Counted from the stretch's first letter, positions 15,626 through 47,664 are shown. The stretch is 55,751 bases of DNA from a virus (IMGVR_UViG_3300048888_000044:1-55751); one strand, 5' to 3'. Notes: generated by a model from the sequence alone, not told the origin. A program made the numbers and translations.

Positions 15626-15672
15626 CTCCGAAACCCATTGCGGAAACACCAAGAAAGGCGTAAACACGACTT

Positions 15673-16236
15673 ATGGCTGACGAAACCGAGATGGACGTTA
15701 GAATTCCCCCGCTCCCCGCTGGATTCTGTTTCAACGCCACGTCCATTCACAATCTGCTGACTCAGATTCAGGTTTTCTTTCCGAGCGTGTTCGCGGTGTG
15801 GAATTTCGGTCCTGACGAACCAACCGTTGAGAACAGGTCTAAGCCGTGGCACAAGACCGATTCGTCAACCAGCATCGGCGTCGGCGATTTCGATTACAGT
15901 CCAATCTTCGGACTGTGGTTGAAGAATCACTGGATCAACAACGGTGGCAATCCTCCGTTCAACGAGAGGAAGATTTTTGTCGGTAGCCTGACTGATCTGG
16001 AACTCTTCGACGGCGGTGAACCTGGAACCGTCAGCGACACGACCGGGCCTTTCTGGCAGCAAGACACGACGTTCAACAATTTGTTGCCTGTGGGAGTGGG
16101 ATTATTCGCTCCTAATGTGAACGTCGCGGTGCCAGCGCCTGCCATTGCCTCGGCGGGTGCGGCGGGGAATGATCCGGGTGCGATGGCTGTGTACTTCATC
16201 AAACCGACTGGGAGATTGTACGACCGCTCAAGTTAA
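15673..16236 (+). CDS. Putative structural protein
   Basis: 187 aa; DGGE...GPFW..D and VYFIK.T.R..Y motifs. Confidence 0.55.
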   Translation: MADETEMDVRIPPLPAGFCFNATSIHNLLTQIQVFFPSVFAVWNFGPDEPTVENRSKPWHKTDSSTSIGVGDFDYSPIFGLWLKNHWINNGGNPPFNERKIFVGSLTDLELFDGGEPGTVSDTTGPFWQQDTTFNNLLPVGVGLFAPNVNVAVPAPAIASAGAAGNDPGAMAVYFIKPTGRLYDRSS

Positions 16237-17246
16237 TGGAAGACATCCTGACATACGCGGACATCAAGGCCGACGACGGAATCAACGCCGTAATCGGTTT
16301 TTGTCCGGGATCTCCCGAGTACGAGAGTCGTGTCAACGACGCGATTGAACGTATCTACCGCAAGGGCGACTGGTGGACGTCACTCAAGAAGGCGCAGTTC
16401 TGTGTCACCAACGGTTGTGTTGCCTGGCCGAAGTTCGTCGGTCGATTGCGCGCTCTGAAACGTTGCAATCACGCAATTCCAATTACGAACGTCTGGGGTT
16501 CCTTCCTTCCATTCGGTCCAACCGACCTGAACTCGTCCTGCTTCTGCTCGGATTACACGGCATTGAACGAAGGGACTACTCCAGTGTCACGCAACGTGGC
16601 TTGTGGAGCTCTCAATATCAAGGTGCGGGCGTACACGCAGTGTCAGAAAGACCTTGGAAAGATCATTCAACTCTTCGGCATCGACACCAACGGCCAACCG
16701 CTCAGGACGCGGAACAGCGATGATACCTGGGTGGATGGAATCAGTCTGGTTCTGGACAAGCCATTTGTGAGCACGACGATGGACATTCGCGAGATCACGA
16801 GAGCGATCAAGCCGGAGACTGAGTGTCCGATTCGACTTTTTCAGTATGACACGGTGAACGACGTGTTGATTGACATGGCCGAGTACCAGCCGCGCGAGAC
16901 CAACCCGCAATACCTGTTCACCCGCATTGGTGGCTTCAACTGCTGCAATACGACATGCGATGGTCAGCGGTCGATCACGGCGTTGTTCAAGATTGCCCTC
17001 ATCAAACTGCGTGACGACACGGACATCAGCCCGGTCCAGAACCTTCAGGCGATTGCCGCGATGGTGCAGTCGATCAAGGCTGGTCAAAGCGGGGATCGCA
17101 AGGCCAGGTTGGAATACGATTTGGATGCGGTTCACGAGATGAATTTGCAGGAGCGCGACTTTGTGCCGACCGACCAGATTGCGATTGACGTGGCGACGTG
17201 GGGCAGTGCGCGGTTGGAAAAGGCCGGAATCGGCTGGAACATCTGA
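16236..17246 (+). CDS. Head-tail adaptor / tail tubular A-like protein
   Basis: 336 aa; position before ejection-type genes. Confidence 0.5.
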   Translation: MEDILTYADIKADDGINAVIGFCPGSPEYESRVNDAIERIYRKGDWWTSLKKAQFCVTNGCVAWPKFVGRLRALKRCNHAIPITNVWGSFLPFGPTDLNSSCFCSDYTALNEGTTPVSRNVACGALNIKVRAYTQCQKDLGKIIQLFGIDTNGQPLRTRNSDDTWVDGISLVLDKPFVSTTMDIREITRAIKPETECPIRLFQYDTVNDVLIDMAEYQPRETNPQYLFTRIGGFNCCNTTCDGQRSITALFKIALIKLRDDTDISPVQNLQAIAAMVQSIKAGQSGDRKARLEYDLDAVHEMNLQERDFVPTDQIAIDVATWGSARLEKAGIGWNI

Positions 17247-17248
17247 TT

Positions 17249-18211
17249 ATGCCAACGACAACGATTACACGCTACATTGCCCCCGGAGTTGGAACCAAGG
17301 GAACTGGAGCTACCGGTTATGATGTCAACCCGGCACCGAGAACCGGTCAGGGTCCATACGGACTTGTTCCGGGAGCTACCGGACTTCCAGACCCGCACGC
17401 TGACCTGGCGAAGCTGATACCAGGTCTGGACTCTGCCACAGGACAGGCTTCTCAGAATGTGATTCACGAGTTGACGGGTGAATTGCCACCGGATGTGATT
17501 TCTTCAATCGAAGACGAGGGGGCAAGATATGGTGTGACCTCGGGGATGCCCGGTAGCACGCTGGCAAGGAACCGAACCGCCAAGAACGTGGGTTTGACTT
17601 CACTTGGTCTTCAGCGCAGTGGGTTACAGGATTATTTGGGACTGACAACGGGAGTGAAGTCCAATCAGACCGTTCCGCCGGCATTACAAGCCGAGATTGC
17701 GTCCAACAACGCGAACCTGAACGCTGCCCCTGATCCGGCGGCGCGAGCGGCGGAATTGGAAGCAGCCTTCAATCGCGGGCGTGGTGGAGTGCCTGGAGCC
17801 GGTGGTGGTTTCGGAGGTTCAATCGGAGCGCCAAATCTGAGTCCAAGTCCAGGAAATCCTTTCGGCATGGGTGCTCCCAATACGTTCCCGGTCGCTTCGG
17901 GCAACTTTCACGGAACGGGCGGCGGTGGAGGTGGTGGAGGGCCAACGTTTACTCCTGGACCAGCCATTTATCCCGGCGCGACTGGTGAGCCACTGGATTT
18001 CACTGGAGGTCAAAACTTCGATTGGGAGAATGAACTGTTCCCGACCAGCGCGCCAACATTTGATTGGGAAAATGAGTTGTTTCCAACGAGCGGGCCGTCG
18101 GGATTCAACATTGACGACGAGTTGTTTCCGACCAACGCTGGCAACGACCTGTACGACTGGGAAGACGAATTGTTTCCGTCGAACGATGCCGATTACGCGG
18201 ATTACGAATAA
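17249..18211 (+). CDS. Putative DNA ejection (pilot) protein
   Basis: Gly-rich; C-terminal FDWENELFP-type repeats. Confidence 0.55.
   Translation: MPTTTITRYIAPGVGTKGTGATGYDVNPAPRTGQGPYGLVPGATGLPDPHADLAKLIPGLDSATGQASQNVIHELTGELPPDVISSIEDEGARYGVTSGMPGSTLARNRTAKNVGLTSLGLQRSGLQDYLGLTTGVKSNQTVPPALQAEIASNNANLNAAPDPAARAAELEAAFNRGRGGVPGAGGGFGGSIGAPNLSPSPGNPFGMGAPNTFPVASGNFHGTGGGGGGGGPTFTPGPAIYPGATGEPLDFTGGQNFDWENELFPTSAPTFDWENELFPTSGPSGFNIDDELFPTNAGNDLYDWEDELFPSNDADYADYE
18017..18183 (+). repeat. Four coding repeats F/Y-D-W-E-x-E-L-F-P
   Basis: FDWENELFPT, FDWENELFPT, FNIDDELFPT, YDWEDELFPS. Confidence 0.85.
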
Positions 18212-23724: not shown

Positions 23725-24430
23725 ACCGCGCCACTAGCCACCCAAAACGCTCGGTGCCGGTTTCAATCACTTCCCAAAAACTGTTACCAACAATGGAGTT
23801 TGCGGTTCTGTTGTGTTTACAGTGCCGAACGTCATCAAGCACCAACACAAACGGCGACTTCACAAGTTTCATCAGGTAGGTGAACTCCAGGAAACCCAAG
23901 TGTCCGGCGCTGTCGAGCAACACGAGGTCAGGTCTGAATCCGAAGGCACCCAGAGCGACCCACAACAATTTGTCCGGTCCTTCCGTCTCCTGCTCCTTCA
24001 TATAAAGAGCCGCACGAACTTCTTTCGGATGATCGAAGTAAATTCCCGGGGTTTCATCATCGACGAACTGTTTCTGAATCTCGTCACGCGTCGGCAGGTT
24101 GGATCGGGGGATACTCAGTCCGTGTAGACAGACTACTTCCGGGTTGTTCCGGTAATGCGCGGAAGCAACCTTCCAATAGGTGTACTGCGCCTCGATGGTG
24201 ACGAAGGTGAAGTCGGGACCGTTGCTTTTCAGAGCATCATGCAACACGCGAGTCGTGCCGTTTCCCAGGTAGGTGCCGGTCTCGATCACGTTGCGCGGTT
24301 TGAACCGGGCGACCGTGCGGCGAATGGCGTCCTCGAATTCTCCGTGCTCAGGGGGACTGATAGTCATTCCAACGTTCACCAGAGGATTTGTTTCTACGTC
24401 CATCGACTCGAAAGTTTTTTGACCGTTCAT
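23708..24430 (-). CDS. Class I SAM-dependent methyltransferase-like
   Basis: VIETGTYLGNGTT, LVLLDS, LVLDD. Confidence 0.7.
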   Translation of the reverse strand: MNGQKTFESMDVETNPLVNVGMTISPPEHGEFEDAIRRTVARFKPRNVIETGTYLGNGTTRVLHDALKSNGPDFTFVTIEAQYTYWKVASAHYRNNPEVVCLHGLSIPRSNLPTRDEIQKQFVDDETPGIYFDHPKEVRAALYMKEQETEGPDKLLWVALGAFGFRPDLVLLDSAGHLGFLEFTYLMKLVKSPFVLVLDDVRHCKHNRTANSIVGNSFWEVIETGTERFGWLVARFKAGG

Positions 24431-24585
24431 TCCAAGAAATCTCTATGGCGTTAGCACCCTCAGTCAGCATGCCATTTACAATCACATTCAGTTGAGTGGC
24501 TACAACCTCCATGTTTTCTAGGTGAGAGGAAGTACAGACAATTTTCCTTTGTTGGATGAGCACAATTTGTTCGGGCATAATTTTT

Positions 24586-24840
24586 TCACAGAGGTTTATG
24601 GCAATGGGGGCAAACAAACATTTCCCGTGGAAGATTCAAGAATGCACGCAATTCGTCTTCAGCCATCTTGCCGAAGTTCCAATATTTTCGGCATTCTCCG
24701 CTTATCACTAATTTACGAAGTCGTCTTGTGTTCAATCTTCCATCTACCGTGAAGCACTGAGAATTGGCTATAAAATTCTGACAGCGCACACTCAATTTAT
24801 TCACCAAATCCGACCTCCCTTGACTGTGTGACATACTCAT
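24586..24840 (-). CDS. RNA polymerase alpha-CTD-like protein with C-terminal CxxC
   Basis: LSVRCQN...NFGKMAEDELRAFL...CPHC. Confidence 0.5.
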   Translation of the reverse strand: MSMSHSQGRSDLVNKLSVRCQNFIANSQCFTVDGRLNTRRLRKLVISGECRKYWNFGKMAEDELRAFLNLPREMFVCPHCHKPL

Positions 24841-24889
24841 AACTAAATTTTTACTTGCAAGTGTCGATTCAATGCAAGACAAATAGTGA

Positions 24890-25075
24890 ATGCCAGTAGC
24901 CGAGAGTCGAACATACACCCGCAAACGCGATGGGAAGAGCCGCACGCAGTTCACGGTTTGGATTCTCGACGAGCTGTTGCCGGCGCTGCAAAAGGTGTCC
25001 GCTGACACGGGCAAGGCACAAACCAAGGTGCTCGCCGAGTTCGGAGAGGCCAGATTGAGGAGGGTGAAGGTATGA
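24890..25075 (+). CDS. Small DNA-binding protein (RHH-like)
   Basis: Basic N-terminus, beta strand QFTVWI then two helices. Confidence 0.45.
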   Translation: MPVAESRTYTRKRDGKSRTQFTVWILDELLPALQKVSADTGKAQTKVLAEFGEARLRRVKV

Positions 25076-25084
25076 AACGCAAAA

Positions 25085-25175
25085 TTCTAACGCCAAAGCT
25101 GAGCCGGGACGCTCGAATGAGGACGAATGACTAAACCAACGTGCCAGCGGCCTTGGCTCCAGCGTCTGGTTAGGT
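25085..25175 (-). other. attC-like site 1
   Basis: Minus strand ACCTAAC-CAGAC-GCTGGAGC...GCTCAGC-TTTGGC-GTTAGAA. Confidence 0.9.
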
Positions 25176-25448
25176 GCATTCAGTTGGGGCACTCTCCAAA
25201 TAAAGAGTCTTGTGCTTCAGGATTTCCAAGTCCGACAGGGCAAGAAACTGCGTGGCAGCGTTCAAAGATAATGGCAAAGGAAACAGCCAAACATTGTCGA
25301 AGAGCAATTTGGTGTGCGAATCTTTCTTTTTTAGCGTTTCGTATTCACTTAAAAGATACTGCCAAGACTTCCATTTATCGGTTGGTGGTTCGTGCCCGTG
25401 AGATGGTGACGGCTTTTCGACGCAAATCAGTAAGTGTGGGGTGTTCAT
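25170..25448 (-). CDS. Cassette 1 gene (canonical orientation), hypothetical
   Basis: ATG shortly after GTTAGGT; stop TAA inside ACCTAAC of attC1. Confidence 0.7.
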   Translation of the reverse strand: MNTPHLLICVEKPSPSHGHEPPTDKWKSWQYLLSEYETLKKKDSHTKLLFDNVWLFPLPLSLNAATQFLALSDLEILKHKTLYLESAPTECT

Positions 25449-25464
25449 ATTGTGAAGGGAATGC

Positions 25465-25601
25465 ACCTAACGACCGAAGCTCACCCGCGACGCTGAAGGA
25501 AAAGGAGATTCATGAAAAAGAATAAAACCGATATGAAAAAGAATAAAACCGATGGTCTAACCTCAACGCCAGCGGCGTCGCGGTGCAGCGCATGGTTAGA
25601 C
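25465..25601 (-). other. attC-like site 2
   Basis: GTCTAAC-CATGC-GCTGCACC...GGTGAGC...GTTAGGT; loop holds a 21-nt tandem duplication. Confidence 0.88.
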
Positions 25602-25904
25602 ATCATGCCGAAGCTGTTTACTCTCCAACATCTTTCTCGTCTTCTCTTCCTCGTCAGACAGCCAATTTGGTGGAGTTTGAAGGGCAGCCAGTTTATTCTT
25701 CAATGCCGTATTATCTTTCATAAGTCGCTCTATCGTTTTTATCTGTGTCGCAAGTGTGTCGTCTTGTTTGTCAGCGCGCGCCTGGTACGCTTCCGCCTCT
25801 TCCAAGCCGAGCGAAAGCTGATTGCGCAATATGGCCGTGACTGGCGGCTTCGTGTGTTCAACAATGAGTGCGTCGAGTCTTTGAAGATGTTCGATAAGAT
25901 TCAT
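25596..25904 (-). CDS. Cassette 2 gene (canonical orientation), coiled-coil protein
   Basis: ATG about 15 nt after GTT; stop TAA inside GTCTAAC of attC2. Confidence 0.75.
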   Translation of the reverse strand: MNLIEHLQRLDALIVEHTKPPVTAILRNQLSLGLEEAEAYQARADKQDDTLATQIKTIERLMKDNTALKNKLAALQTPPNWLSDEEEKTRKMLESKQLRHDV

Positions 25905-25912
25905 ACGATGAT

Positions 25913-26002
25913 GTCTAACCCCGGAACTCAGCGACCCGGCGACCAGACGAAGGACTCACCCTCAACGCCCAAGCCGGGTTCGTTGGAGTGACCTGGTTAG
26001 AA
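25913..26002 (-). other. attC-like site 3 (probable founding site of array 1)
   Basis: Plus strand GTCTAAC...ACTCAGCGACCCGGC / GCCGGGTTCGTTGGAGT...GTTAGAA. Confidence 0.85.
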
Positions 26003-26004
26003 TT

Positions 26005-26295
26005 ATGATCTCCCCTCGCCAACTCTTCCTAAAACAGCCGTTCGCATCGAACGTTCAGAACTTTATCGTGCAAGACCAGTTTCAGGCGGCACTGGCCTAC
26101 GCGTTGGCGGACATGGCCACCAGCAGCGCCATCAGCGCCGATCAATTGTCCGGGGCCAAGCTGTTCATCGCGCACCTGAACGTCATCGGGGAACGCATCG
26201 AGGAAGAAAAGTCCGTCGAGTTGCCAACCCTGAGCCAGCCTGATCCACAGCAAATGCAACGCTTGAAAGAGCAACAGAAGAAGGGTAACAAGTAA
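26005..26295 (+). CDS. Hypothetical protein preceding scaffold
   Basis: 96 aa ORF, 2 nt before scaffold ATG. Confidence 0.7.
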   Translation: MISPRQLFLKQPFASNVQNFIVQDQFQAALAYALADMATSSAISADQLSGAKLFIAHLNVIGERIEEEKSVELPTLSQPDPQQMQRLKEQQKKGNK

Positions 26296-26297
26296 TT

Positions 26298-27527
26298 ATG
26301 CCAGCCTCACTCGAAGCCCCTCCAGCACCAGCTCAAACCACTCCAGCACCAGCGCCGTCGCCGACACCACCATCTCAGCCGGTGACGATGCCATCTCCGC
26401 AACCGGCCTCGACCGCTCCGGACCCGGACAAGTTTTTCGACACCCTGGACGACGCTCCCAAGCCACCCGAGCCAAAGCCTGCCTCGACGGAGGCCACCAA
26501 GCCCGATCCCAAGACTCCGGCAAAACCGGGTGAACCCAAGCCTGGAACTGAACCAGCCAAGCCGGCCGGCGAGAAGCCGGAACAGTTCAAGAGCCCGAAG
26601 GAACTGCGCCAGGCGTACGATCGCACGTCGAACGAACTGAAGGCCAAGAACGCCGAGGTGGTGCGCCTGCTGCAACAGCTTGAGACAGCCAAGGCTGGCG
26701 TACAGCCAAACACGACCGAGATAGCGGCACTCACCGAACGGCTGGCGCGACGCGAGAAGGAGTTCTCCGAGTTGGAATCCGAGCTCAAGGTCATCCGTTA
26801 CGAGAAGTCTCCTGAGTACAAGGCCAAATTCCTTGAACCTTTCAACGCGGCGACGAAACGAGCGCATGATGCGGTCAGCCAGTTGGTGATCACCGCCGAG
26901 AACAAGCAGACTGGAGAAAAGTCCGAACGCCGGGCGACCGTGGCCGATTTCAACGCTGTGGCAAGTCTTCCCGAGGGAGCCGCTTGGCAGAAGGCCAGGG
27001 CCATATTCGGCGAGGACGCGCACCTCGTCATGCGCCACTACAACAAGTTGAGTGAGATCGCCGAACAATCACAGGTCGAGATCGAGCGTTACCAGAAGGA
27101 AGCCGCGGACAGGGAGAAGACCGACGTGGCGCGCAGTGCCACTGAACGACAGGCGGCAGAGGCAATGTCACGCAAGGCCGATGAAGGCTGGCAGAAACGA
27201 AGCAAGTGGTTTGCTCCAGTCGAGGGTGACGACGAAGGAAATGCCCTGTTGAAAACCGGGTTTGAACGCGTGGACGCTGACACTGGAGCATTGACTCCGG
27301 CACAACGCATCATCCAGCAGAGTTACGTGCGCCACGCGGCGGCGGCGTATCCCAGGTTGAAGGCCAAGGTGACGGCCTACGAGACGCGCATTGCGGATTT
27401 GGAAGCTAAGCTCAAAGAGTTCGAGAATTCCGAACCTGGACCATCGCGAACGACTCCAGGACTGAAACCCGACAAGGGGATCGCTGAAGATGCCATGACC
27501 GATCCGAAAGCTCCGTGGAACCAATAA
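26298..27527 (+). CDS. Putative capsid scaffolding protein
   Basis: Pro/Ala/Lys-rich N-terminus then long coiled coils. Confidence 0.6.
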   Translation: MPASLEAPPAPAQTTPAPAPSPTPPSQPVTMPSPQPASTAPDPDKFFDTLDDAPKPPEPKPASTEATKPDPKTPAKPGEPKPGTEPAKPAGEKPEQFKSPKELRQAYDRTSNELKAKNAEVVRLLQQLETAKAGVQPNTTEIAALTERLARREKEFSELESELKVIRYEKSPEYKAKFLEPFNAATKRAHDAVSQLVITAENKQTGEKSERRATVADFNAVASLPEGAAWQKARAIFGEDAHLVMRHYNKLSEIAEQSQVEIERYQKEAADREKTDVARSATERQAAEAMSRKADEGWQKRSKWFAPVEGDDEGNALLKTGFERVDADTGALTPAQRIIQQSYVRHAAAAYPRLKAKVTAYETRIADLEAKLKEFENSEPGPSRTTPGLKPDKGIAEDAMTDPKAPWNQ

Positions 27528-27531
27528 CCCC

Positions 27532-27559
27532 TTGACACACGGCAAGGATTTTGTAATGT
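27532..27559 (+). promoter_or_regulatory. Sigma70-type promoter
   Basis: TTGACA-N16-TAATGT directly before HTH gene (probably leaderless). Confidence 0.65.
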
Positions 27560-27817
27560 GTGTCGATGTCACGTTCAAAAGGCCATCGCACGGGTGAGAT
27601 AGAGGGAATTCGGGTTCGTCCGAGTCTGCAACTGCTGAACATCATCAGCGCGTATCCCACGACCAACGCCGCAGCCAAATTTCTTGGTCTCGCCTATTCG
27701 ACGCTCGACAGTTTCATCAATCACGAGGGAGGAATCAGCCTCGACAACGCCGCGCAGATCATCACGCGGACGGGGTTGAGTTACGAACAACTGTTCAAGC
27801 ACAAGAAGGAGAAGTGA
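27560..27817 (+). CDS. Cro/CI-type HTH regulator
   Basis: NAAAKFLGLAYSTLDSFIN...ISLD...YEQLF. Confidence 0.75.
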   Translation: MSMSRSKGHRTGEIEGIRVRPSLQLLNIISAYPTTNAAAKFLGLAYSTLDSFINHEGGISLDNAAQIITRTGLSYEQLFKHKKEK

Positions 27818-28374
27818 GCGACAAACAGAAATACGGACGAGAGGTTGCTCTAAAGGTGGCTGAAGACCTTCAATCCCGACTCAAGCTGGCGTGCCGTAGA
27901 ATGGCTGTGGCTGGATCACTGCGTCGAGGAAAAGAAACCGTTGGAGATGTTGAGCTGCTTTTTGTGCCAGTGCTGGCGGAACGGGCCGATGGACTGTTTG
28001 ACCGCCGCTTGGTGTCCGTGGCGGACGAAGTGTGCAACGAACTGTTGCGCGACGGAATTCTAGCGAAACGCCCAAACGTCAAAGGTCACTTTACGTGGGG
28101 CGAGGCAAACAAGCTGGCGGTGCATGTTGCAAGCGGAGTGCCGGTGGACTTCTTTTCCACGACCGAAGACAACTGGTGGGTGAGTCTGGTGATTCGCACT
28201 GGCAGCAAGGAAACCAACCTGAAGCTGACCAACGGAGCCATTCACCTTGGCAGGAAATTACACGCTTACGGATCGGGAGTTACGATGCCGGACGGAAGCA
28301 CTCGAAAAGCCCAAAGCGAACAGGAAGTTTTTGAACTGTGCGGAGTCCCTTACCTTGAACCGAAAGACCGATAA
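27814..28374 (+). CDS. Minimal family X DNA polymerase
   Basis: AGSLRRGKETVGDVELL, VDFF, RTGS, SEQEVFE..G.PY.EP..R. Confidence 0.9.
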   Translation: MSDKQKYGREVALKVAEDLQSRLKLACRRMAVAGSLRRGKETVGDVELLFVPVLAERADGLFDRRLVSVADEVCNELLRDGILAKRPNVKGHFTWGEANKLAVHVASGVPVDFFSTTEDNWWVSLVIRTGSKETNLKLTNGAIHLGRKLHAYGSGVTMPDGSTRKAQSEQEVFELCGVPYLEPKDR

Positions 28375-28376
28375 AC

Positions 28377-29489
28377 ATGACCACCCAACTATCCAAACCG
28401 AACACCATCGAGTCGATGCTGGCGTCGCCTCAGATACGTCAACGCTTCAACGAGATGCTCGGGCAACGCGCGCCGCAGTTCATTTCGTCGATTATCACCG
28501 TTTACCGTGGATTTTCTTCCCCGGTAGATCCGGCGAGCGTCATTGCCAGCGCCGCCATCGCCGCCACCCTGGACCTTCCGATCGAGAAGAACCTTGGTTT
28601 CGCGCACATCGTTCCTTACGCGGGCGTGGCTCAATTTCAAATGGGAGCGAAAGGACTGACCCAGTTGGCTCTTCGCAGCAATCAGTATTCGGGGATGAAC
28701 GCCGTGGCCATCAATGCGGAGTGCTTCGGTGGGTACGACAACATTGGAGATCCGATCATTCGTTGGGACTTGCTTGACGAGACCAAGGAAGCGATTGGGT
28801 ACGTGTTCGCGTGGCGTCTGACTAGCGGATTTTCAAAGACGGTTTACTGGCCCAAAGCGAAGGTGGTTGCTCACGCTGAACGATTCAGCCAGGCGTACAA
28901 GAAAAAGAAGGCTGACAGTCCGTGGATGAACAACTTTGACGCAATGGCCCTGAAAACTGTGATAGCAAACTCACTGCGACGGTGGGGTATTTTGAGCGTT
29001 CAGATGCAAACCGCGTTCAAATACGACCAGGCGATCATCAAGAACATCGACGCCGAACCGCAGTACGAGGACGATATCCCGTTCGGTCCGGCGACGACCT
29101 CCAAACTGATTTCAGGCGGGAAGAAAACCCGCAAGCAGGAGCCTCAGGAACCGACTGAGCCTGAGCAACCAATTTCCGGCGAGGGTTCTGACGAGTCCAC
29201 CGCCGGCACTCCCGCGCCCATCGCCCCTGGTTCTCCAGATCAGCTCAATGGGCCGGGAGTTGTTCCTTTGGAGCACGGTGACAGTGAGGACGCCAACGAG
29301 GTCATTCGCATCATCATGGCCAACGCGCGTGAGCTGGGAATCGAGGAAAAGTTGCTGATGATGTGGTCCAAGGCGGCGAAACTGGCTTCTGAAAAACAGA
29401 GTCAACTGAGCGACCTGGCGACGCACAAGCTCAAGAAAATCTGCGAACAATGGCCGGCCGTGGTGAAGGAGATTACCGGGAAGTCATAA
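28377..29489 (+). CDS. recT: RecT-family ssDNA annealing protein
   Basis: AATLDLPI..NLGFAHIVPY..AQFQMG.KG..QLALRS, FDAMALKTV; stop is the TAA of attC4. Confidence 0.92.
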   Translation: MTTQLSKPNTIESMLASPQIRQRFNEMLGQRAPQFISSIITVYRGFSSPVDPASVIASAAIAATLDLPIEKNLGFAHIVPYAGVAQFQMGAKGLTQLALRSNQYSGMNAVAINAECFGGYDNIGDPIIRWDLLDETKEAIGYVFAWRLTSGFSKTVYWPKAKVVAHAERFSQAYKKKKADSPWMNNFDAMALKTVIANSLRRWGILSVQMQTAFKYDQAIIKNIDAEPQYEDDIPFGPATTSKLISGGKKTRKQEPQEPTEPEQPISGEGSDESTAGTPAPIAPGSPDQLNGPGVVPLEHGDSEDANEVIRIIMANARELGIEEKLLMMWSKAAKLASEKQSQLSDLATHKLKKICEQWPAVVKEITGKS

Positions 29490-29571
29490 CGACAAGCTGA
29501 GGCACGGCGGAGAAAACCAATGACCATGAAAAGCGAACAATCCCGCCGTTGCCTCCAGCGACTGGTTCGAG
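29484..29571 (-). other. attC-like site 4
   Basis: CTCGAAC-CAGTC-GCTGGAGG-CAACGGCGG / CCGCCGTG-CCTCAGC-TTGTC-GTTATGA. Confidence 0.9.
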
Positions 29572-29953
29572 GACATTCGTGTATCCCGTCGAAGCCAATC
29601 ACTCCACCGTCCTCGGCTACGGAGCAACCTCAAAAGCTGGAAAACCAATGTGGGCGGCGCTGGTGTGGGCTGGCGCACGCAAGGACGGCGGCGCACACAT
29701 GATGAATCCGACCGGAGGCGAATACCTGCACGTCCGCGTGAAGCCTCTGACGGACGGCTGCTGGTATCGCGTCCGCTGCTCCCACTCCCGCGGAAACAGA
29801 TGGCGTGGCGGCGTCGTGGAAAATGTCGAAGTAAAACAAAAACGGGGCAAGTGGCACTGGCACGTCACTGTGTCCTCGAACGTAGAGGTGAGCGGTCAGA
29901 GTGGGCGCGATAAGGCGTCCGCCTGCAAGCCGGACTCAATGCGCCCACTCTGA
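29549..29953 (+). CDS. Cassette A gene, hypothetical
   Basis: Frame open from attC4 into attC5; start uncertain. Confidence 0.5.
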   Translation: MPPATGSRTFVYPVEANHSTVLGYGATSKAGKPMWAALVWAGARKDGGAHMMNPTGGEYLHVRVKPLTDGCWYRVRCSHSRGNRWRGGVVENVEVKQKRGKWHWHVTVSSNVEVSGQSGRDKASACKPDSMRPL

Positions 29954-29976
29954 TTCGCTCGACCGATTTGTTAGAC
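29875..29976 (-). other. attC-like site 5
   Basis: Arms TCAGAGTGGGCGC / GCGCCCACTCTGA with extrahelical bases. Confidence 0.92.
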
Positions 29977-29984
29977 GACGATTT

Positions 29985-30236
29985 ATGAAACAAGACAACC
30001 AATGGCATGACGGAATCGTGTATCAGCACTCTGATGATGGCAAATTCGTGCTCGCTGAAAACTTAGAGGAAGCTGACAAAGACAATCGCCCGATGACGAT
30101 GGAAGGGGGAGGCGTGAAATACCAAGACGTGAAATACAACTGGAATCGCGGACAGCCAATCGTGGACTTCGGCGATTTCAAAATGGTCATCACAGACATC
30201 GGGTTCGTAAAACTGGACGAAACGCAAGTCGTCTAA
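29985..30236 (+). CDS. Cassette B gene, hypothetical
   Basis: ATG just after GTTAGAC; stop in GTCTAAC. Confidence 0.7.
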   Translation: MKQDNQWHDGIVYQHSDDGKFVLAENLEEADKDNRPMTMEGGGVKYQDVKYNWNRGQPIVDFGDFKMVITDIGFVKLDETQVV

Positions 30237-30338
30237 CGAAAAGCTGACGCACAGCCGCGATTAACTATGAGCACGAAATTAACCTGTGACGCTGGACTGC
30301 AACAGACCCCGGCTGTTGCGTCCGGCGTCTTGTTAGCA
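30231..30338 (-). other. attC-like site 6
   Basis: GCTGACGCACAGCCG / CGGCTGTTGCGTCCGGC arms flanked by AAC and GTT. Confidence 0.9.
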
Positions 30339-30617
30339 CCCAAAACCCTCGAAGAACTCATAAACCAAGCCGCCGAAGTGCTGCCTGACTGGTGGGAGAT
30401 ACGAATCGAAGTGCAGCAAGGATACGGGCAAGCAATCGTGACGCGGCCAGACGGCACGGAAGTGCAAATGTCCGATGGCGAGAACGACATCCGAGAACAG
30501 TTTCGTGATGCGCTGGGTCTGGTGCGTGATGAACTGGAAGCAGACAAACTCTTGGGTGCTAACGACAAGCTCAGAGATGGCGCGACAGAGAGGCGTCCAT
30601 ATTCACAGGAAACGTAA
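30267..30617 (+). CDS. Cassette C gene, hypothetical
   Basis: Starts in attC6 loop, ends in attC7 loop. Confidence 0.7.
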   Translation: MSTKLTCDAGLQQTPAVASGVLLAPKTLEELINQAAEVLPDWWEIRIEVQQGYGQAIVTRPDGTEVQMSDGENDIREQFRDALGLVRDELEADKLLGANDKLRDGATERRPYSQET

Positions 30618-30648
30618 TCGCGCCATTCTCTGAAGCGCATGGTTAGAG
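30557..30648 (-). other. attC-like site 7
   Basis: GCTCAGAGATGGCGCGA / TCGCGCCATTCTCTGAAGC arms. Confidence 0.92.
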
Positions 30649-30661
30649 CACGTCAAATACA

Positions 30662-30976
30662 ATGAAAACACTGACACCAGGACACAAATACGAACTCGAA
30701 AACTTCGAGGCCAAAGACCAACCCGGTCAGGTCATCCAGTTCATCGAGAAAACTCCAGTCGCCGGCGAACCCGGCAAACTGGTCACACTCAACGACGGCA
30801 CGACCAACGAGGAAGTGCTCAAGATGCTGATAGACCGCTGCCAGTCTCTCTACGACAAATTCCCGTCGGAGGAAACGGCGTGCTCCATCAGCCATCTCAA
30901 ATCGGCGCTATACGCGCAACAGTCCCGGACATACGAACGCTCTCAACGCGGCGTCGAAGGGAAGCACCTCAAGTGA
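30662..30976 (+). CDS. Cassette D gene: Tad1/Acb2-like anti-defence sponge
   Basis: H.Y...IQF...GTTNEEVL..LIDR...F.SEETAC.I.HL..AL....RT.ER..RGVEG matches the Tad1 pattern. Confidence 0.7.
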   Translation: MKTLTPGHKYELENFEAKDQPGQVIQFIEKTPVAGEPGKLVTLNDGTTNEEVLKMLIDRCQSLYDKFPSEETACSISHLKSALYAQQSRTYERSQRGVEGKHLK

Positions 30977-31001
30977 CAACCGAGCACGGGGAGACTAAGT
31001 G

Positions 31002-31127
31002 CTCTAACGCAGAAGTGAGCGGACAGCCGCCGAGTGCGACTCGCAATGACACCAAAAATCTATGAGCAAAAATAACGAATCGAAACGGAAAAGCGGGGCG
31101 GCTGTTCGCTCCACTGACGGGTTAGGC
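31002..31127 (-). other. attC-like site 8
   Basis: AGTGAGCGGACAGCCGCC / GGCGGCTGTTCGCTCCACT arms. Confidence 0.9.
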
Positions 31128-31325
31128 ATCGGCACAATCCACGACCCAAAAGCTATGTTCCTCCGCAACTACGTCGGGGAAGCAACGTGCGGAAAACTCA
31201 AATACGAAATTAGCACTGGAATGAACGGCTCGCCAATCGTCCACAGCAAGAAATCCGGCAAGTGGTTCTCGCTATCATGGCAAGACATTCTGGCGCTCGC
31301 GGAGAAGGCAGGCGTAGATGCCTAA
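31062..31325 (+). CDS. Cassette E gene, hypothetical
   Basis: Starts in attC8 loop; stop in GCCTAAC. Confidence 0.7.
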   Translation: MSKNNESKRKSGAAVRSTDGLGIGTIHDPKAMFLRNYVGEATCGKLKYEISTGMNGSPIVHSKKSGKWFSLSWQDILALAEKAGVDA

Positions 31326-31444
31326 CGCAGAAGTCAGCGACAGCCGCCGAGAGAAACCATGAACGACACTCTGACATTGGAACAGCCAGCAACGCCTCGA
31401 AACGGAGAGCGGGGCGGCTGTTCGTCTGCACTGATTGGTTCGGC
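31320..31444 (-). other. attC-like site 9
   Basis: AGTCAGCGACAGCCGCC / GGCGGCTGTTCGTCTGCACT; similar to attC8. Confidence 0.9.
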
Positions 31445-32048
31445 ATTTCGGTGTGTCGTAGCTGACCCTCCGTGGCTGCCAACGATGGCACTGGTGAATA
31501 GTCCTGCCAGCGGTATCGGTGCACCGAAGGCAAGTCCGCAACGCCACTACCCGACGATGAGCGTCGAGGAAATCTGCGCCCTGAATCCGCCGTCTGCCAC
31601 TCAATCTCACCTCTGGCTCTGGTGTCTGAATCAGCACACGGATTGGGGTCACACCGTCGCAAAGGCGTGGGGCTTTGAAGTGTTCCAGATGGTGACGTGG
31701 TGCAAACCCGGCCTCGGAACTGGCCGATTCCAATGCAACAGCGAGCAAGTGCTACTCTGCCGGAAAGGAACTCGCCACGGCAATCCGTTCGGGATGACCG
31801 GCGGCACATACTTCAACTGGCCGCGTGGCCGACACTCTGAAAAGCCGGATTCATTCTACGACCTCGTGGAGCGAGTATCACCTGGCCCGCGTCTGGAAAT
31901 GTTCGCTCGCACCCGCAGACTCGGCTGGTCTGCATGGGGCAACGAAATCTCCAGCGACGTAGAAATGCCGAACGCAGAGTCCAGCTATCGGAGTGGGCCG
32001 GTAGCGGCGTCGAATAAACCGGCGGCTCAATCGGCCCACTCCGATTAG
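31359..32048 (+). CDS. Cassette F gene: MT-A70-family adenine methyltransferase
   Basis: ADPPW, HLWLW, HSEKP, RLEMFAR, GWSAWGNE. Confidence 0.9.
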   Translation: MNDTLTLEQPATPRNGERGGCSSALIGSAFRCVVADPPWLPTMALVNSPASGIGAPKASPQRHYPTMSVEEICALNPPSATQSHLWLWCLNQHTDWGHTVAKAWGFEVFQMVTWCKPGLGTGRFQCNSEQVLLCRKGTRHGNPFGMTGGTYFNWPRGRHSEKPDSFYDLVERVSPGPRLEMFARTRRLGWSAWGNEISSDVEMPNAESSYRSGPVAASNKPAAQSAHSD

Positions 32049-32067
32049 CTGCGACGATTGGTTAGCT
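31967..32067 (-). other. attC-like site 10
   Basis: GTCCAGCTATCGGAGTGGGCCG / CGGCCCACTCCGATTAGCTGCGAC with two extrahelical bases. Confidence 0.93.
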
Positions 32068-32074
32068 GCTTTTT

Positions 32075-32503
32075 ATGGGAATGTTTGACGACATCAAGTG
32101 CAAGTATCCGCTGACGGTGGAAGGTGCGAACGCGCTCGCCTACCAGACGAAGGACACCGACGCGCAGCAACTCGACAACTACGAGATTCGAGAGGACGGA
32201 ACGCTGTGGCACGAGAACTACGATCCTCGATTTGAGGAGCACAAAGAAGCGCCTCTCGGCTTCTACATCCACCGCGACAACCTGAGATGGGAGCAAGTGC
32301 CCATAACTGGCGAAGTCCGATTCTACACGATGTATGGCGTCAAAGACGGGCAACTGGTGAACGCCAACGCCCGTGACGGCTGGCTGGAATGGTCGGCCTA
32401 CTTCGCGGACGGAAAACTCAATCAAATTCACCTGCTCGAAAACCGAGCGCCAGATGCAGCTAACGATGAGTTCAGGCGCACAGACCCGCCGTTGAAACCA
32501 TGA
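32075..32503 (+). CDS. Cassette G gene, phage-type hypothetical
   Basis: MGMFD...QTKD...Y.I.EDG.L...TG.VRFY...F.DG.L; stop in attC11 loop. Confidence 0.8.
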   Translation: MGMFDDIKCKYPLTVEGANALAYQTKDTDAQQLDNYEIREDGTLWHENYDPRFEEHKEAPLGFYIHRDNLRWEQVPITGEVRFYTMYGVKDGQLVNANARDGWLEWSAYFADGKLNQIHLLENRAPDAANDEFRRTDPPLKP

Positions 32504-32592
32504 CGCCACTCGAACAATCCAAGCCTGCCGACGAAGCCCGCGACTCTGTGCTGCGAAGCGGGGCTGTGTCGTCCTGCAACGATTTGTTAGGG
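32458..32592 (-). other. attC-like site 11
   Basis: GTTCAGGCGCACAGACCCGC / GCGGGGCTGTGTCGTCCTGCAAC. Confidence 0.88.
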
Positions 32593-33360
32593 CGCGTTTT
32601 GGTGGCGTGCGAATATAGCGGAACTGTCCGCGATGCGTTCAAACTCAAGGGATGGGATGCTTGGTCGTGTGACTTGCTTCCAACCGATGTTCCTGGACAA
32701 CACCATCAAGGAGACGTGGCAGAACTTCTGAAACAGCAATGGGACATAATCATCGCCTTCCCACCATGCACCTATCTCTGCTCGTCTGGAATGCACTGGA
32801 CTGTGCGAGGCAAGCGCGATCCTCAACTGACGGAAGACGCGCTCAGTTTCGTGCGCTCATTCCTCGATGCTCCCTGTGAACACATCGCGCTCGAAAATCC
32901 AGTCGGCTGCATCTCGACGCGCATCCGAAAACCGGACTGCGTGATTCACCCTTGGCAATTCGGACACCCCGAATCCAAGACAACCTGCCTATGGCTCAAA
33001 AATCTTCCGGCGCTCGTGCCGACAAATATCCTGACAAAGCCAGCAAGCGGCCACTGGGAAAACCAATGCTCAACCGGCTCGCAAAACCGACTAGGGCCAA
33101 GCCCAACCCGGTGGAAGGAACGAAGCAAAACATATCAAGGCATCGCCTCCGCGATGGCCGCACAGTGGAGCGCGTTCGTATTAAATTCGCGCACGACTGC
33201 CAAGAGTGTCCCGATTGCGGAGAACCTTTTTGCTTGGAGTGCCAGGAACACTACGCCGACTGCCGATGTGTCGGGCCAAGCAACGCCGAAGATGATGGAT
33301 GGACGCTCATTGAACGGCGTGGAGTGCTCTACGGCGAACGCAACGCGCCCTAACAAATGA
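32500..33360 (+). CDS. Cassette H gene: C5-cytosine methyltransferase-like
   Basis: VLVACEYSG, SCDL, FPPCTYL, ENPVG, HPWQFGH; ATG supplied by attC11 loop. Confidence 0.8.
   Translation: MTPLEQSKPADEARDSVLRSGAVSSCNDLLGRVLVACEYSGTVRDAFKLKGWDAWSCDLLPTDVPGQHHQGDVAELLKQQWDIIIAFPPCTYLCSSGMHWTVRGKRDPQLTEDALSFVRSFLDAPCEHIALENPVGCISTRIRKPDCVIHPWQFGHPESKTTCLWLKNLPALVPTNILTKPASGHWENQCSTGSQNRLGPSPTRWKERSKTYQGIASAMAAQWSAFVLNSRTTAKSVPIAENLFAWSARNTTPTADVSGQATPKMMDGRSLNGVECSTANATRPNK
33165..33353 (+). CDS. Cassette H second ORF, Cys-rich Zn finger
   Basis: CQECPDCGEPFCLECQEHYADCRC; stop in CCCTAAC. Confidence 0.55.
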   Translation: MERVRIKFAHDCQECPDCGEPFCLECQEHYADCRCVGPSNAEDDGWTLIERRGVLYGERNAP

Positions 33361-33366
33361 TTAGAC
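33348..33366 (-). other. attI-like simple site closing array 2
   Basis: Minus strand GTCTAAT-CATTT-GTTAGGG (L, 5-bp spacer, R); no attC arms. Confidence 0.6.
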
Positions 33367-33369
33367 AAC

Positions 33370-33678
33370 ATGGCGCGCCGAGCAAATAGCCGAAATGTCT
33401 GGTGGCAAAATCACTACGCCAAACTGCGCGCCGCCAAGGAACGCAAGCGTCTTGCCGATCCTGATTTCAGCCAGGAAACGAATCCCCTAGTGCCAATTCC
33501 GCGCCCCAAAGCGCGCTTCCGTATCTTGATTGAGGATCAGCAGGTGGGTGACCGGCTCCAGATCAAACTTTATCCCACTCCCTTCCGCGGCCAGTTTGCG
33601 ACGGGCGATGGGATCCGCAGCGTGCGCCAGCTCGAACGCGCCTTTGGCCATATTTTGAGAACAGCTTTTACCGTATGA
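33370..33678 (+). CDS. Hypothetical basic protein
   Basis: 102 aa, coupled to next gene. Confidence 0.6.
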   Translation: MARRANSRNVWWQNHYAKLRAAKERKRLADPDFSQETNPLVPIPRPKARFRILIEDQQVGDRLQIKLYPTPFRGQFATGDGIRSVRQLERAFGHILRTAFTV

Positions 33679-34769
33679 AAAGAACCCCATTCAGCGCCTC
33701 AAACTTTTCACGCCGTCGTCTCTGCAACGGCAGTCTCCCGATGGAGGACGGGTTGCCCGAGGTCGAGAACGAGTGGTCGGCGGAAGGGACGCTGCTGCAC
33801 CACGCCGCGGCGACACAAGTTCACACGGGTCTCAACCAATATCAGTCAGAAGTGGTTCAGCAAGCACTCGGTCATCGAAATCGGTTCATCGACACTCTCG
33901 CTCCACCAGACCCGGACGACTGGAAATTCTTCTTCGAGATCGAACTGCCGTACACTCTCAAGAACAAGACCGTGTTCCTGAACCACGCGGACTACGTGGC
34001 AGTGTTCCCAAAGGCCGTCGCCATCGTGGACTACAAATTCGGCTACGAGGAAGTCGATGCGCCGGAACTGAACGAGCAACTGGCGGTTTACATTGCCTGC
34101 TTGGCCGAGAAATTTGACGTACCGGAATACTACGGCCTGATAATCCCCAGGTTTGGCAATCCGGCGCCACCGGTGAAGTACACGCGCGCGGAGATTCCTG
34201 CCCTGCGAAAGATGATCGAGGACGTGTACGACGCCTGCACACCGAAGGCACCACGCACGCCTGGGGTGAGGCAGTGTACCTATTGCAAAGGTTTTCAGCT
34301 TGGTTTGTGCAAAGAGGCAATCAGCATGGCGATGAATCCAGTCCACAAGTTCAGCGGAAAGTTGCTTCAGAATCCCGGCCAAGTATTGCAATCACTCCCT
34401 GCGACTGACCGCACCAAACTCTTCGACGCCTTCGCGATGGCCGACAAGTTGCGCAAGACGTTCGTGGCCGCAGTCAAACCGATGATTGAGCGAGATCCTG
34501 AGTTCGTTCCTGGATACCGACTCAGCAAGGAGGGTGAGACAAGAAGCAAGGTTACGGATTTGTTCAGCTTAGAGGAAAGGCTGTGGAAAAAATTGAATTT
34601 GTCCCACGAAGGATTTGTGGCTCACTGCTCTATTTCCAACACGGAATTGAAAGATTTGGTTCGCGAGATTTCGGGCCTAAAAGGCAAAGAGCTGGACGCA
34701 AAGGTTGCTGAGTTGACTAAGGGACTGGTGGATACGACGCCGGTGGAAAGGAGTTTGGAGAGGGTATGA
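33675..34769 (+). CDS. Cas4-like PD-(D/E)XK exonuclease (DUF2800-like)
   Basis: C..S, AEGTLLH, AD, IVDYKFG, N.QL..Y, C..C....C. Confidence 0.8.
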   Translation: MKRTPFSASNFSRRRLCNGSLPMEDGLPEVENEWSAEGTLLHHAAATQVHTGLNQYQSEVVQQALGHRNRFIDTLAPPDPDDWKFFFEIELPYTLKNKTVFLNHADYVAVFPKAVAIVDYKFGYEEVDAPELNEQLAVYIACLAEKFDVPEYYGLIIPRFGNPAPPVKYTRAEIPALRKMIEDVYDACTPKAPRTPGVRQCTYCKGFQLGLCKEAISMAMNPVHKFSGKLLQNPGQVLQSLPATDRTKLFDAFAMADKLRKTFVAAVKPMIERDPEFVPGYRLSKEGETRSKVTDLFSLEERLWKKLNLSHEGFVAHCSISNTELKDLVREISGLKGKELDAKVAELTKGLVDTTPVERSLERV

Positions 34770-47313: not shown

Positions 47314-47664
47314 GTGAAACTTCCAAACTATGTCAGCGAAACCATCAAGCGGCTCAACCCGAATTTGTTTGTTCGTCGAGTGGATTCCGAAATCTCCGAA
47401 CCGGACCCGCGGCGAGCACTGGTCGAAGACGTTCAAGCACGGGAAAAAAGCTCACGATGCGTGGCGTATCGCGTGGTACTCGTCGCCCACCGCAAGAGAC
47501 TGGTTGATGATGACAATAACGTCGCCGGCTGCAAACCTCTCAGAGATGCCATCGCAGAAACCTTGAGGATCGACGACGGCGACGAACGAATTCAGTGGGA
47601 GTACGGTCAGGTGAAAACGAGTGGAACCGGGGGTGTGTTCGTCATCATTGAAAAGACGTTGTGA
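47314..47664 (+). CDS. RusA-like Holliday junction resolvase
   Basis: DDDN....KPLRDAI...IDD motif. Confidence 0.6.
   Translation: MKLPNYVSETIKRLNPNLFVRRVDSEISEPDPRRALVEDVQAREKSSRCVAYRVVLVAHRKRLVDDDNNVAGCKPLRDAIAETLRIDDGDERIQWEYGQVKTSGTGGVFVIIEKTL

Follow-up and report, generated by a model that had tools for sequence, protein, structure and literature searches.

The virus record IMGVR_UViG_3300048888_000044:1-55751, a metagenome-derived contig from IMG/VR that was analysed over its whole length of 55,751 bp (hereafter the window), carries eleven hairpins that delimit ten units in two arrays. We conclude, with a probability of roughly 0.8, that the hairpins are genuine integron attC sites, that the units are gene cassettes and that together they form an integrase-less cluster of attC sites (a CALIN) in a phage. 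This conclusion is drawn because the attC sites are confirmed by covariance models, the cassette ends are complementary, no recombinase is encoded in the record, and the nearest relative lacks the arrays.

Integrons are familiar as devices by which bacteria capture genes, and CALINs have been reported only recently from phages, with few sites. Among 10,705 NCBI phage genomes, a set distinct from IMG/VR, Qi et al. reported 3 complete integrons, one In0 and 17 CALINs, the last in virulent as well as temperate phages and with methyltransferases among the cassettes; under IntI1, five of the six phage attCs put to the test recombined with attI1 (Qi et al., 2023, Front Microbiol, PMC9892861). The window resembles those CALINs in being an integrase-less attC cluster with methyltransferase cargo, and since such clusters were reported there, the central claim made here is not new. 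The CALIN of Tetrasphaera phage TJE1 has three attCs and four open reading frames (ORFs) (PMC9892861), compared with 11 attCs in the window. The literature searched yielded no phage with this many attC sites (the supplementary tables of Qi et al. may list larger CALINs) and no description of integrons in IMG/VR phages.

attC identity of the hairpins and cassette boundaries

The eleven hairpins had been marked in an earlier note on this DNA, and every start found here lies within 2 nt of the coordinate given there, all in one orientation (Table 1). From AAC to GTT the elements span 80–129 nt (the end of the e11 span was set by hand to the G at 32586). When the + strand is folded as DNA, they share one plan, in which an AAC/GTT box of ~5 bp is followed by an unpaired spacer of 5–7/5 nt, a 3-bp helix, an unpaired base on the 3' arm, ~6 bp, a second unpaired 3'-arm base and further stem, with a variable loop of 32–79 nt closing each hairpin. 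The outer boxes read AAC…GTT in 11 of 11 elements and YTAAC…GTTAG in eight, the others having GAAC or GTTCG on one side. In an alignment fitted to a covariance model, extra bases fall on the 3' arm of the + strand only, one to three of them in nine of the ten window elements aligned; the eight extra 3'-arm bases shown by e5 were taken as an alignment artefact. The DNA folds and the extra bases agree with the earlier interpretation, according to which each element reads R''-L''(longer)...L'-R' on the minus strand.

Covariation within the stems was assessed on a structure-blind MAFFT alignment. Here 86.9% of cells pair, as against 25–45% when the partner is slid by 1–3 columns; double-sided changes occur in 12 of 20 pairs, and the observed score was reached by none of 500 shuffles.

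By the usual nomenclature, attC sites carry boxes with the consensus RYYYAAC / GTTRRRY and extrahelical bases on the R''/L'' arm. The GTTRRRY consensus is also given by Qi et al. (2023, PMC9892861).

Two covariance models connect the hairpins to known attC sites. Model R1 was built from window elements 4–11 alone, and model R2 from 44 attC bottom strands of integrase-linked arrays elsewhere (class 1, Vibrio, Bacteroidota, Verrucomicrobiota, Planctomycetota and others), none of them from the window. R1 recovers the three held-out elements e1–e3 and finds nothing below E 0.08 in the rest of the window, and it scores true sites at 75–82 bits versus 13–15 bits on their reverse strands. An attC covariance-model search had been proposed in the earlier note; the home-made R2 returns all 11 window sites on the + strand, which corresponds to the attC bottom strand, with E from 1.1e-13 to 1.6e-7, the next best match having E 0.46. 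The recovery of held-out sites, the strand-specific scores and the covariation relative to shuffles put the hairpins far above chance: they are real and oriented.

The fit is reciprocal. At E <= 0.1, R1 matches seven class 1 attCs, those behind aadA1, aadA2, psp, cmlA1, qacH, estX and dfrA in the phage P1 record MH445380, and in the Vibrio anguillarum array of the Vibrio phage record MK672802 it gives 14 matches at E <= 0.1 and 16 at E < 1. Every match in the two records falls on the bottom strand, opposite to the cassette genes. Over 80 bacterial intI loci collected with an integrase query, R1 gives 58 matches at E <= 0.001, 55 of them on the intI strand and 53 of these upstream of intI; the three on the other strand fall in one Gemmataceae locus (L087) with a known inverted-integrase layout. 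The attC architecture claimed earlier is thus borne out by R2, by the reciprocal R1 matches to class 1 and Vibrio attCs, and by the signature at the cassette ends described below.

Because the + strand of the window fits the bottom strands of known attC sites, an orientation checked against the controls, the crossover is placed between the A and the C of the left-hand AAC (AA/C, the slash marking the crossover). Distances from one AA/C to the next give unit sizes of 318–890 bp, the range stated previously (Table 1). In all nine adjacent pairs, the right box of one element is complementary to the left box of the following site over 9–13 contiguous nt, compared with merely 3–5 nt for its own left box. 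The match to the next site is likewise the longer one in 42 of 47 adjacent pairs from eight loci (nine of these pairs being from the window) and in four of five pairs of the class 1 control.

The array edges carry the same signature. At the left edge of array 1, AATTCTAAC (25083-25091) pairs over 9 contiguous nt with the right box of e3, GTTAGAATT, as would be expected if c1 and c2 had been inserted at the AA/C of e3. Array 2 is closed by a half-site that forms a 17-nt perfect complement of the e11 right box (an inverted repeat), and when the flanks of this array are rejoined, a GTT stands at the crossover on the top strand. The flank behind the half-site, CAAATGATTAGACAAC, has the pattern AAC-N3-4-GATT-N3-CAAC in common with the attI flanks that adjoin intI in two integrase-bearing viral contigs, G001 and G003; the motif GATTNNNCAAC occurs only four times in the window, counting both strands. 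This likeness to attI is suggestive only.

A crossover at the right-hand GTT, with gene and then attC on the + strand, was considered first and rejected. The arrays close with a hairpin-less half-site that pairs the distal box of the last attC, such a closing half-site likewise adjoins intI in G001 and G003, the models fit only the bottom strands of known attCs, and conservation of c6 stops at the next AAC.

The earlier note had listed no integrase, and none came to light: integron integrase (TIGR02249), Phage_integrase (PF00589) and Resolvase domains have no match anywhere in the 55,751-bp record, which is estimated to be 99% complete and has no end repeats. With neither an integron integrase nor a tyrosine or serine recombinase in the record, the phage is probably non-integrating and virulent. 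We considered whether the 102-aa ORF behind array 2 might be an intI remnant and rejected this, as it has no similarity to IntI (BLASTP E 0.54). The 11 sites occupy one strand, the largest gap between them being 3,475 bp (26007 to 29482). For IntegronFinder, a CALIN consists of two or more same-strand attC sites with spacings below 4 kb and no neighbouring intI (PMC4889954); with 3.5 kb between them on one strand, the two arrays would fall under this 4-kb rule as a single CALIN. The window has the make-up of a CALIN and lacks that of a complete integron (an intI with the specific insert, adjoining attI and the array), which is present in the viral contigs G001, G003 and G007.

Two further features of the hairpins deserve mention. 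The left arms of e8 and e9 are 94% identical (31004-31052 / 31322-31369) and their right arms share 17 identical nt (31092-31108 / 31408-31424); the two differ by a one-base insertion, through which the second bulge of e9 becomes a G-T pair in e8. The loop of e2 contains a perfect 21-bp tandem duplication at 25512-25553 (ATGAAAAAGAATAAAACCGAT, twice), preceded by a strong AAGGAG. Duplication and AAGGAG both lie on the + strand, whereas the gene of this cassette is on the minus strand.

Cassette genes and their polarity

In array 1 the genes have the canonical polarity: they are on the minus strand (the top strand of the attCs), with stop codons inside the R'' box. Both cassettes have the trait of the typical cassette, a promoterless top-strand gene followed by its attC; array 2 does not. 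The c2 protein has nine homologues of ~100 aa with 51–74% identity in a large protein database, and a viral scan with it gave no match.

The genes of array 2 lie on the + strand and hence on the bottom strand of the attCs; they read in the same direction as the phage operon. This gene placement is the inverse of the usual one, and the earlier note had missed it. Homology places five of the eight on this strand and codon score two more. Two homologues of the c6 protein share a conserved core whose ends coincide exactly with the right box and the next AAC; outside it, the ~25 N-terminal residues and the C-terminal tail, both attC-encoded, vary. A longest-ORF heuristic, applied to 43 units of the control arrays, assigns the longer ORF to the top strand in 38 and to the bottom strand in one, with four undecided. 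Of the TJE1 sites, the two around its methyltransferase gene are matched by the model; the TJE1 genes lie opposite to the model matches, as is canonical, unlike those of array 2, which share the strand of theirs. In the Vibrio anguillarum array of MK672802 (L017), one unit alone (29527-30195) has its gene on the attC bottom strand, and this gene is annotated as a methyltransferase.

The first in-frame ATG lies within the attC loop in c6, c8, c9 and c11, and 14–20 nt behind the right box in c5, c7 and c10. The stretch of c9 from the attC to the DPPW motif is devoid of ATG, GTG and TTG, which makes a start inside the attC necessary; c9 is the only cassette that lacks an alternative to an ATG in the loop. 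On other contigs, alignments with homologues of c9 and c11 begin only at residues 27–32. Judged from these reading frames, several array 2 genes would begin translation inside an attC hairpin. The literature searched contains no bottom-strand cassette genes with an in-loop start codon (the supplements of Qi et al. may bear on this), and the combination of inverse polarity, co-direction with the operon and several starts in the hairpin loop seems to be new. If it holds, it would alter the picture of cassette expression, which here would depend on operon read-through and not on a Pc promoter. Annotation pipelines that expect a gene upstream of its attC on the same strand would mis-assign such cassettes.

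As for function, the two DNA methyltransferases of array 2 (c9 and c11) are likely to be anti-restriction genes. Eleven well-formed attCs together with phage-type cargo that includes these two enzymes suggest that phages swap counter-defence genes as cassettes.

Table 1. Coordinates of the attC sites (e), cassettes (c) and adjoining features; a slash marks the crossover, and R1 and R2 are the covariance models
Feature	Position	Strand	ORF	Evidence and remarks
e1	25083..25180	+		crossover AA/C 25090/25091; R1 E 4.4e-9 (held-out), R2 E 1.2e-11
c1	25091..25470 (380 bp)		minus, 25170-25466, 98 aa	codon score 0.065 minus vs -0.147 +
e2	25463..25606	+		crossover 25470/25471; R1 E 2.5e-7 (held-out), R2 E 1.5e-9
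c2	25471..25918 (448 bp)		minus, 25596-25904, 102 aa	coiled-coil-like; codon score, low GC2
e3	25911..26007	+		read as resident site of array 1; R1 E 9e-4 (held-out), R2 E 1.6e-7
recT	28377..29489	+		directly upstream of array 2; Pfam RecT 3.1e-32; syntenic with relative L001 (blastn)
array 2	29490..33353	+		eight cassettes; AA/C at 29490, 29881, 30237, 30563, 31008, 31326, 31973, 32464, 33354
e4	29482..29576	+		crossover 29489/29490 = recT TAA stop codon; R2 E 1.4e-13
c4	29490-29880 (391 bp)		unclear	
e5	29873..29981	+		R2 E 2.3e-11
c5	29881-30236 (356 bp)		+, 29985/29901-30236	codon score only
e6	30229..30343	+		R2 E 2.4e-12
c6	30237-30562 (326 bp)		+, 30267-30617	two homologues with conserved core; codon score
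e7	30555..30653	+		R1, R2 matches; 76.5% identity to attC of integrase-bearing contig G003
c7	30563-31007 (445 bp)		+, 30662-30976	phrog_2428, 1e-16; codon score
e8	31000..31132	+		R1, R2 matches; paralogue of e9
c8	31008-31325 (318 bp)		+, 31062-31325	codon score only
e9	31318..31449	+		R1, R2 matches; MT-A70 gene ATG (31359) inside loop
c9	31326-31972 (647 bp)		+, 31359-32048	MT-A70 methyltransferase, Pfam 1.4e-17; codon score
e10	31965..32072	+		R1, R2 matches
c10	31973-32463 (491 bp)		+, 32075-32503	phrog_1615, 7e-6; codon score
e11	32456..32597	+		R1, R2 matches; ATG of 286-aa gene (32500) inside loop
c11	32464-33353 (890 bp)		+, 32500-33360	phrog_757 DNA methyltransferase, 7e-66; codon score
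terminal half-site	33342..33369	+		…AACGCGCCCTAA/C; hairpin-less, closes array 2; AA/C at 33354
102-aa ORF	33370..33678	+		between attI-like site and DUF2800 nuclease gene

Relatives, shared cassettes and integrase-bearing contigs

A single close relative (L001) was found. It is syntenic with the window on either side of the arrays, with RecT identities of 84% (tblastn) and 87% (alignment), and it lacks both arrays: 146 bp stand in the place of array 1, and 35 bp in the place of 29474-33703, which comprises array 2 and the 102-aa ORF. As the entire stretch 29474-33703 is missing there, array 2 may have come as a block. The 146 bp of the relative (L001 8023-8168) lack AAC/GTT boxes and contain two unrelated hairpins, one with a 9-bp stem and one with a 10-bp bulged stem. 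When 24000-34000 was compared with 50,697 phage records by megablast, no match was obtained, a metagenome scan with RecT returned three distant loci only, with no attC matches, and nine IMG/VR RecT loci had no attC matches at E <= 1.

Individual cassettes recur on viral contigs that are otherwise unrelated to the window; by tblastx, it has essentially the cassette regions only in common with G001–G005. The MT-A70 cassette is found at 74% identity between two attCs in G004, and in G005, too, it is bracketed by a pair of attCs; G005 is a phage, 96% complete, that has a terminase match. The phrog_757 gene recurs with an e11-like attC in G001, where the two ends of the cassette are once more mutually complementary in a different sequence. 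Site e11 itself has a counterpart in G002 and G003 with 94.9% identity over 137 nt, an attC that is followed there by an MT-A70 gene instead, and an exact 24-mer of e11 occurs in five IMG/VR contigs. This sharing of cassettes and of a 95%-identical attC with unrelated viral contigs, some of which have a true IntI, seems to be new.

Some of the same genes also occur without an attC. Seven loci (L034–L040) contain the phrog_757 gene and no model match, and their nucleotide homology to c11 starts just past the right box of e11. In L036, the one of the seven that was read, homology with the window sets in exactly at the native start, MRVLVGCEYSG. Comparison of L036 3010-3030 with window 32586-32600 places the native ATG at the position of a GGG in the cassette, right after the right box of the attC. 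This change from native ATG to GGG at the junction is a possible footprint of cassette formation. Five contigs with c10 homologues had no attC, and we read the c10 gene, from these homologues, as one that also exists outside cassettes. The occurrence of cassette genes as ordinary attC-free genes of other phages seems to be new, and no case of the same genes with and without attC was found in the literature searched. Genes present in both forms and joined at the native start offer concrete material on the unsolved origin of cassettes.

Integrases are encoded on several of the viral contigs. IntI of G001, G003 and G007 scores 250, 268 and 249 bits, respectively, against a cut-off of 265, and that of G002 is partial; in G001 and G003 the IntI-specific insert is present, and the catalytic motifs were recognised by eye. 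In these two contigs intI stands downstream of the array and reads in the same direction; a terminal half-site and attI lie just ahead of the intI ATG, the half-site at a distance of ~30-50 nt. The loci L048 (G003, 14982-17792) and L041/L047 (G001) present a complete integron in which array, attI and intI read one way and the cassette genes face intI. The attI-proximal cassette of G003 contains two small ORFs behind a promoter-like TTGCAA…TACGAT.

PHROG searches with the large ORFs of G001 and G003 found no hallmark gene, and a direct family search gave a terminase match of 3.6e-17 in G003. With this terminase match on the same contig, a phage is the probable carrier of at least one of these integrons, that of G003; given its flanking glycosyltransferase genes, G003 could also be a prophage-host junction. 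The bacterial integrases closest to the IntI of the viral contigs (54–59% identity) come from Verrucomicrobiota metagenome-assembled genomes (MAGs), and from this we would guess that the host of the window phage is a member of the Verrucomicrobiota. No phage-borne integrases of a Verrucomicrobiota-like clade linked to such cassettes were found in the literature searched. Short arrays next to intI also occur on a Luteolibacter MAG contig (L062, 8242-9300) and a Polyangiaceae MAG contig (L057, 8408-9390); both are binned as bacterial, and their bottom-strand frames are open through the attCs, like those of the viral contigs.

Origin of the arrays and comparison with known systems

The observations suggest the following scheme. 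The + strand, as single-stranded DNA, would fold into the R box, the unpaired spacer and the L box with the extrahelical 3'-arm bases; an integron integrase encoded elsewhere and acting in trans would then bind the folded strand and cut between the A and the C of the 5' AAC. The enzyme might be provided by the host (probably a member of the Verrucomicrobiota) or by another element of the G001/G003 type that infects the same cell, and the sites may still be active. Array 1 would have arisen when two ordinary cassettes, each with a top-strand gene followed by its attC, were inserted at the AA/C of the resident attC e3. Array 2 consists of eight cassettes of inverse polarity, with the attC first and the gene after it on the same (bottom) strand, and the GTT site at which it is seated, probably attI-like, overlaps the stop codon of recT. 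The cluster as a whole is embedded in the early/recombination region of the phage. Being co-directional with the phage operon, its genes would need no promoter of their own, and translation would start in the attC loop (c6, c8, c9, c11) or just behind the attC (c5, c7, c10).

Several points weigh against the reading of the arrays as a phage CALIN. The record contains no integrase, and recombination at the sites is suggested by the cassette-end signature. The training sites of R2 were themselves picked and aligned with the window-derived R1. The comparison with relatives involves one close relative only, which has no clean empty site and from which the whole of 29474-33703 is missing, and the attI-likeness is based on three sequences. 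As for the cassettes, those of array 2 have the reverse of the polarity by which a typical cassette is defined, c4 contains no convincing ORF, and c11 has an in-frame TTG/GTG right behind its attC that is a possible real start. The longest-ORF heuristic called array 1 'bottom', a result contradicted by the homology of c2 and the codon usage of c1 and c2; homology was therefore relied on for the gene strand.

The strongest competing explanation is that the cassettes are real and the phage is their passive carrier: they would have entered the phage in blocks, through illegitimate or homologous recombination with an integron borne by a phage or by the host, and would now be fixed passengers, with no integrase acting in this phage. 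The lack of an integrase in the record agrees with this explanation, and the stretch 29474-33703, with array 2, the attI-like site and the 102-aa ORF, does differ from L001 as one indel; the terminal flank moreover resembles the attI beside intI in G001 and G003, as if an intI had been lost. Against it, all 11 sites retain the full fold with compensatory changes and score as well as those of integrase-linked arrays, and array 1 is best read as two insertions made exactly at a resident AA/C. Cassettes and attCs are, besides, common to unrelated contigs piecemeal and not as blocks. We therefore regard a relic as unlikely, while leaving it some weight.

The bulged fold lies on the + strand, which in array 2 is the mRNA sense, the hairpins stand between genes of one transcription unit, and several have a start codon in the loop, features that would also suit RNA-level operon elements (processing sites, translational operators or terminators) that merely resemble attC. 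Against this, the fit to genuine attCs is mutual and strand-specific, complementarity between the end of a unit and its own distal box would be meaningless for RNA, and the genes of array 1 lie on the other strand. Promoter and terminator scans stayed at chance level, with 13 terminator-like sites found versus 13.2 expected, and Rfam gave 0 matches. As the whole explanation, RNA elements are very improbable; an RNA role in addition to recombination is possible. A chimera of a phage contig and a bacterial integron, conceivable for a metagenome-derived contig without end repeats, can hardly be credited when two separate arrays each have L001-syntenic genes on either side, the first attC box forms the recT stop codon, and the cargo comes from phage gene families.

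For the phage CALIN that we favour, the earlier note had gone further and proposed that the phage uses integron cassettes as a plug-in accessory platform inside its operons. The relative without arrays, the methyltransferase and phage-type cargo and the cassettes on unrelated contigs speak for such a platform, which is plausible but only partly shown.

Comparison with known systems identifies both shared and distinct features. Classical integrons (class 1, Vibrio) and the window have the same attC fold, the same AA/C and G/TT crossover logic and the same complementarity of cassette ends; classical integrons possess intI and a Pc promoter, and the window has neither. G001, G003 and the class 1 control agree in layout, with the attC bottom strand being the intI strand and the array lying 5' of intI. 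In array 2, G001, G003 and G004, the bottom-strand genes face attI and intI, unlike those of the control arrays.

The inverted-integrase integrons of Treponema and others also have intI and cassette genes in the same direction (Cury et al., 2016, PMC4889954), as do G001 and G003. In that type intI is on the same strand as the annotated attC sites, the layout that we observed in L087. The relation of intI to attC in G001 and G003 is instead the ordinary one, and it is the genes within the cassettes that are flipped.

Integrases can also insert cassettes outside att sites, at attG sites with a GWT consensus (Loot et al., 10.1101/2022.09.11.507474). The rejoined 5'-GTT-3' of the window fits GWT, and insertion of this kind is a possible way to seed an array in a row of phage genes. 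The flank in the window is, however, also attI-like when set beside those of G001 and G003, and the site may thus be of the attI type rather than a random genomic one.

Taken jointly, four features would define a phage-adapted branch of integrons, with the window as an integrase-less client of its cassette pool. The integrases would be carried by phages, with array, attI and intI oriented like a phage operon; in each cassette the attC would come first, its loop providing the ribosome-binding site and the start codon for a gene on the bottom strand; the pool would be drawn from genes that other phages carry free of attCs (DNA methyltransferases and members of PHROG families), with the attC joined exactly at the native start codon; and this pool would be exchanged among unrelated phages. 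We advance the four together tentatively, giving the combination somewhat less than an even chance. If it is true, the junctions at native start codons would bear on how cassettes are born.

The remainder of the record fits a phage genome, with a large terminase (phrog_2, E 1.9e-9) and a virion or tail protein, as well as genes for a DUF2800/PD-(D/E)XK nuclease and a pol-beta-like nucleotidyltransferase; tRNA genes were absent from the record. A third DNA methyltransferase is encoded outside the arrays at 47661-48728 (phrog_67, E 1.2e-75), with no attC nearby. The nucleotidyltransferase gene (27814-28374) is also variable, L001 having 13 bp instead of window 27807-28377; no attC flanks this stretch, which is hence an indel of another kind that adjoins the arrays.

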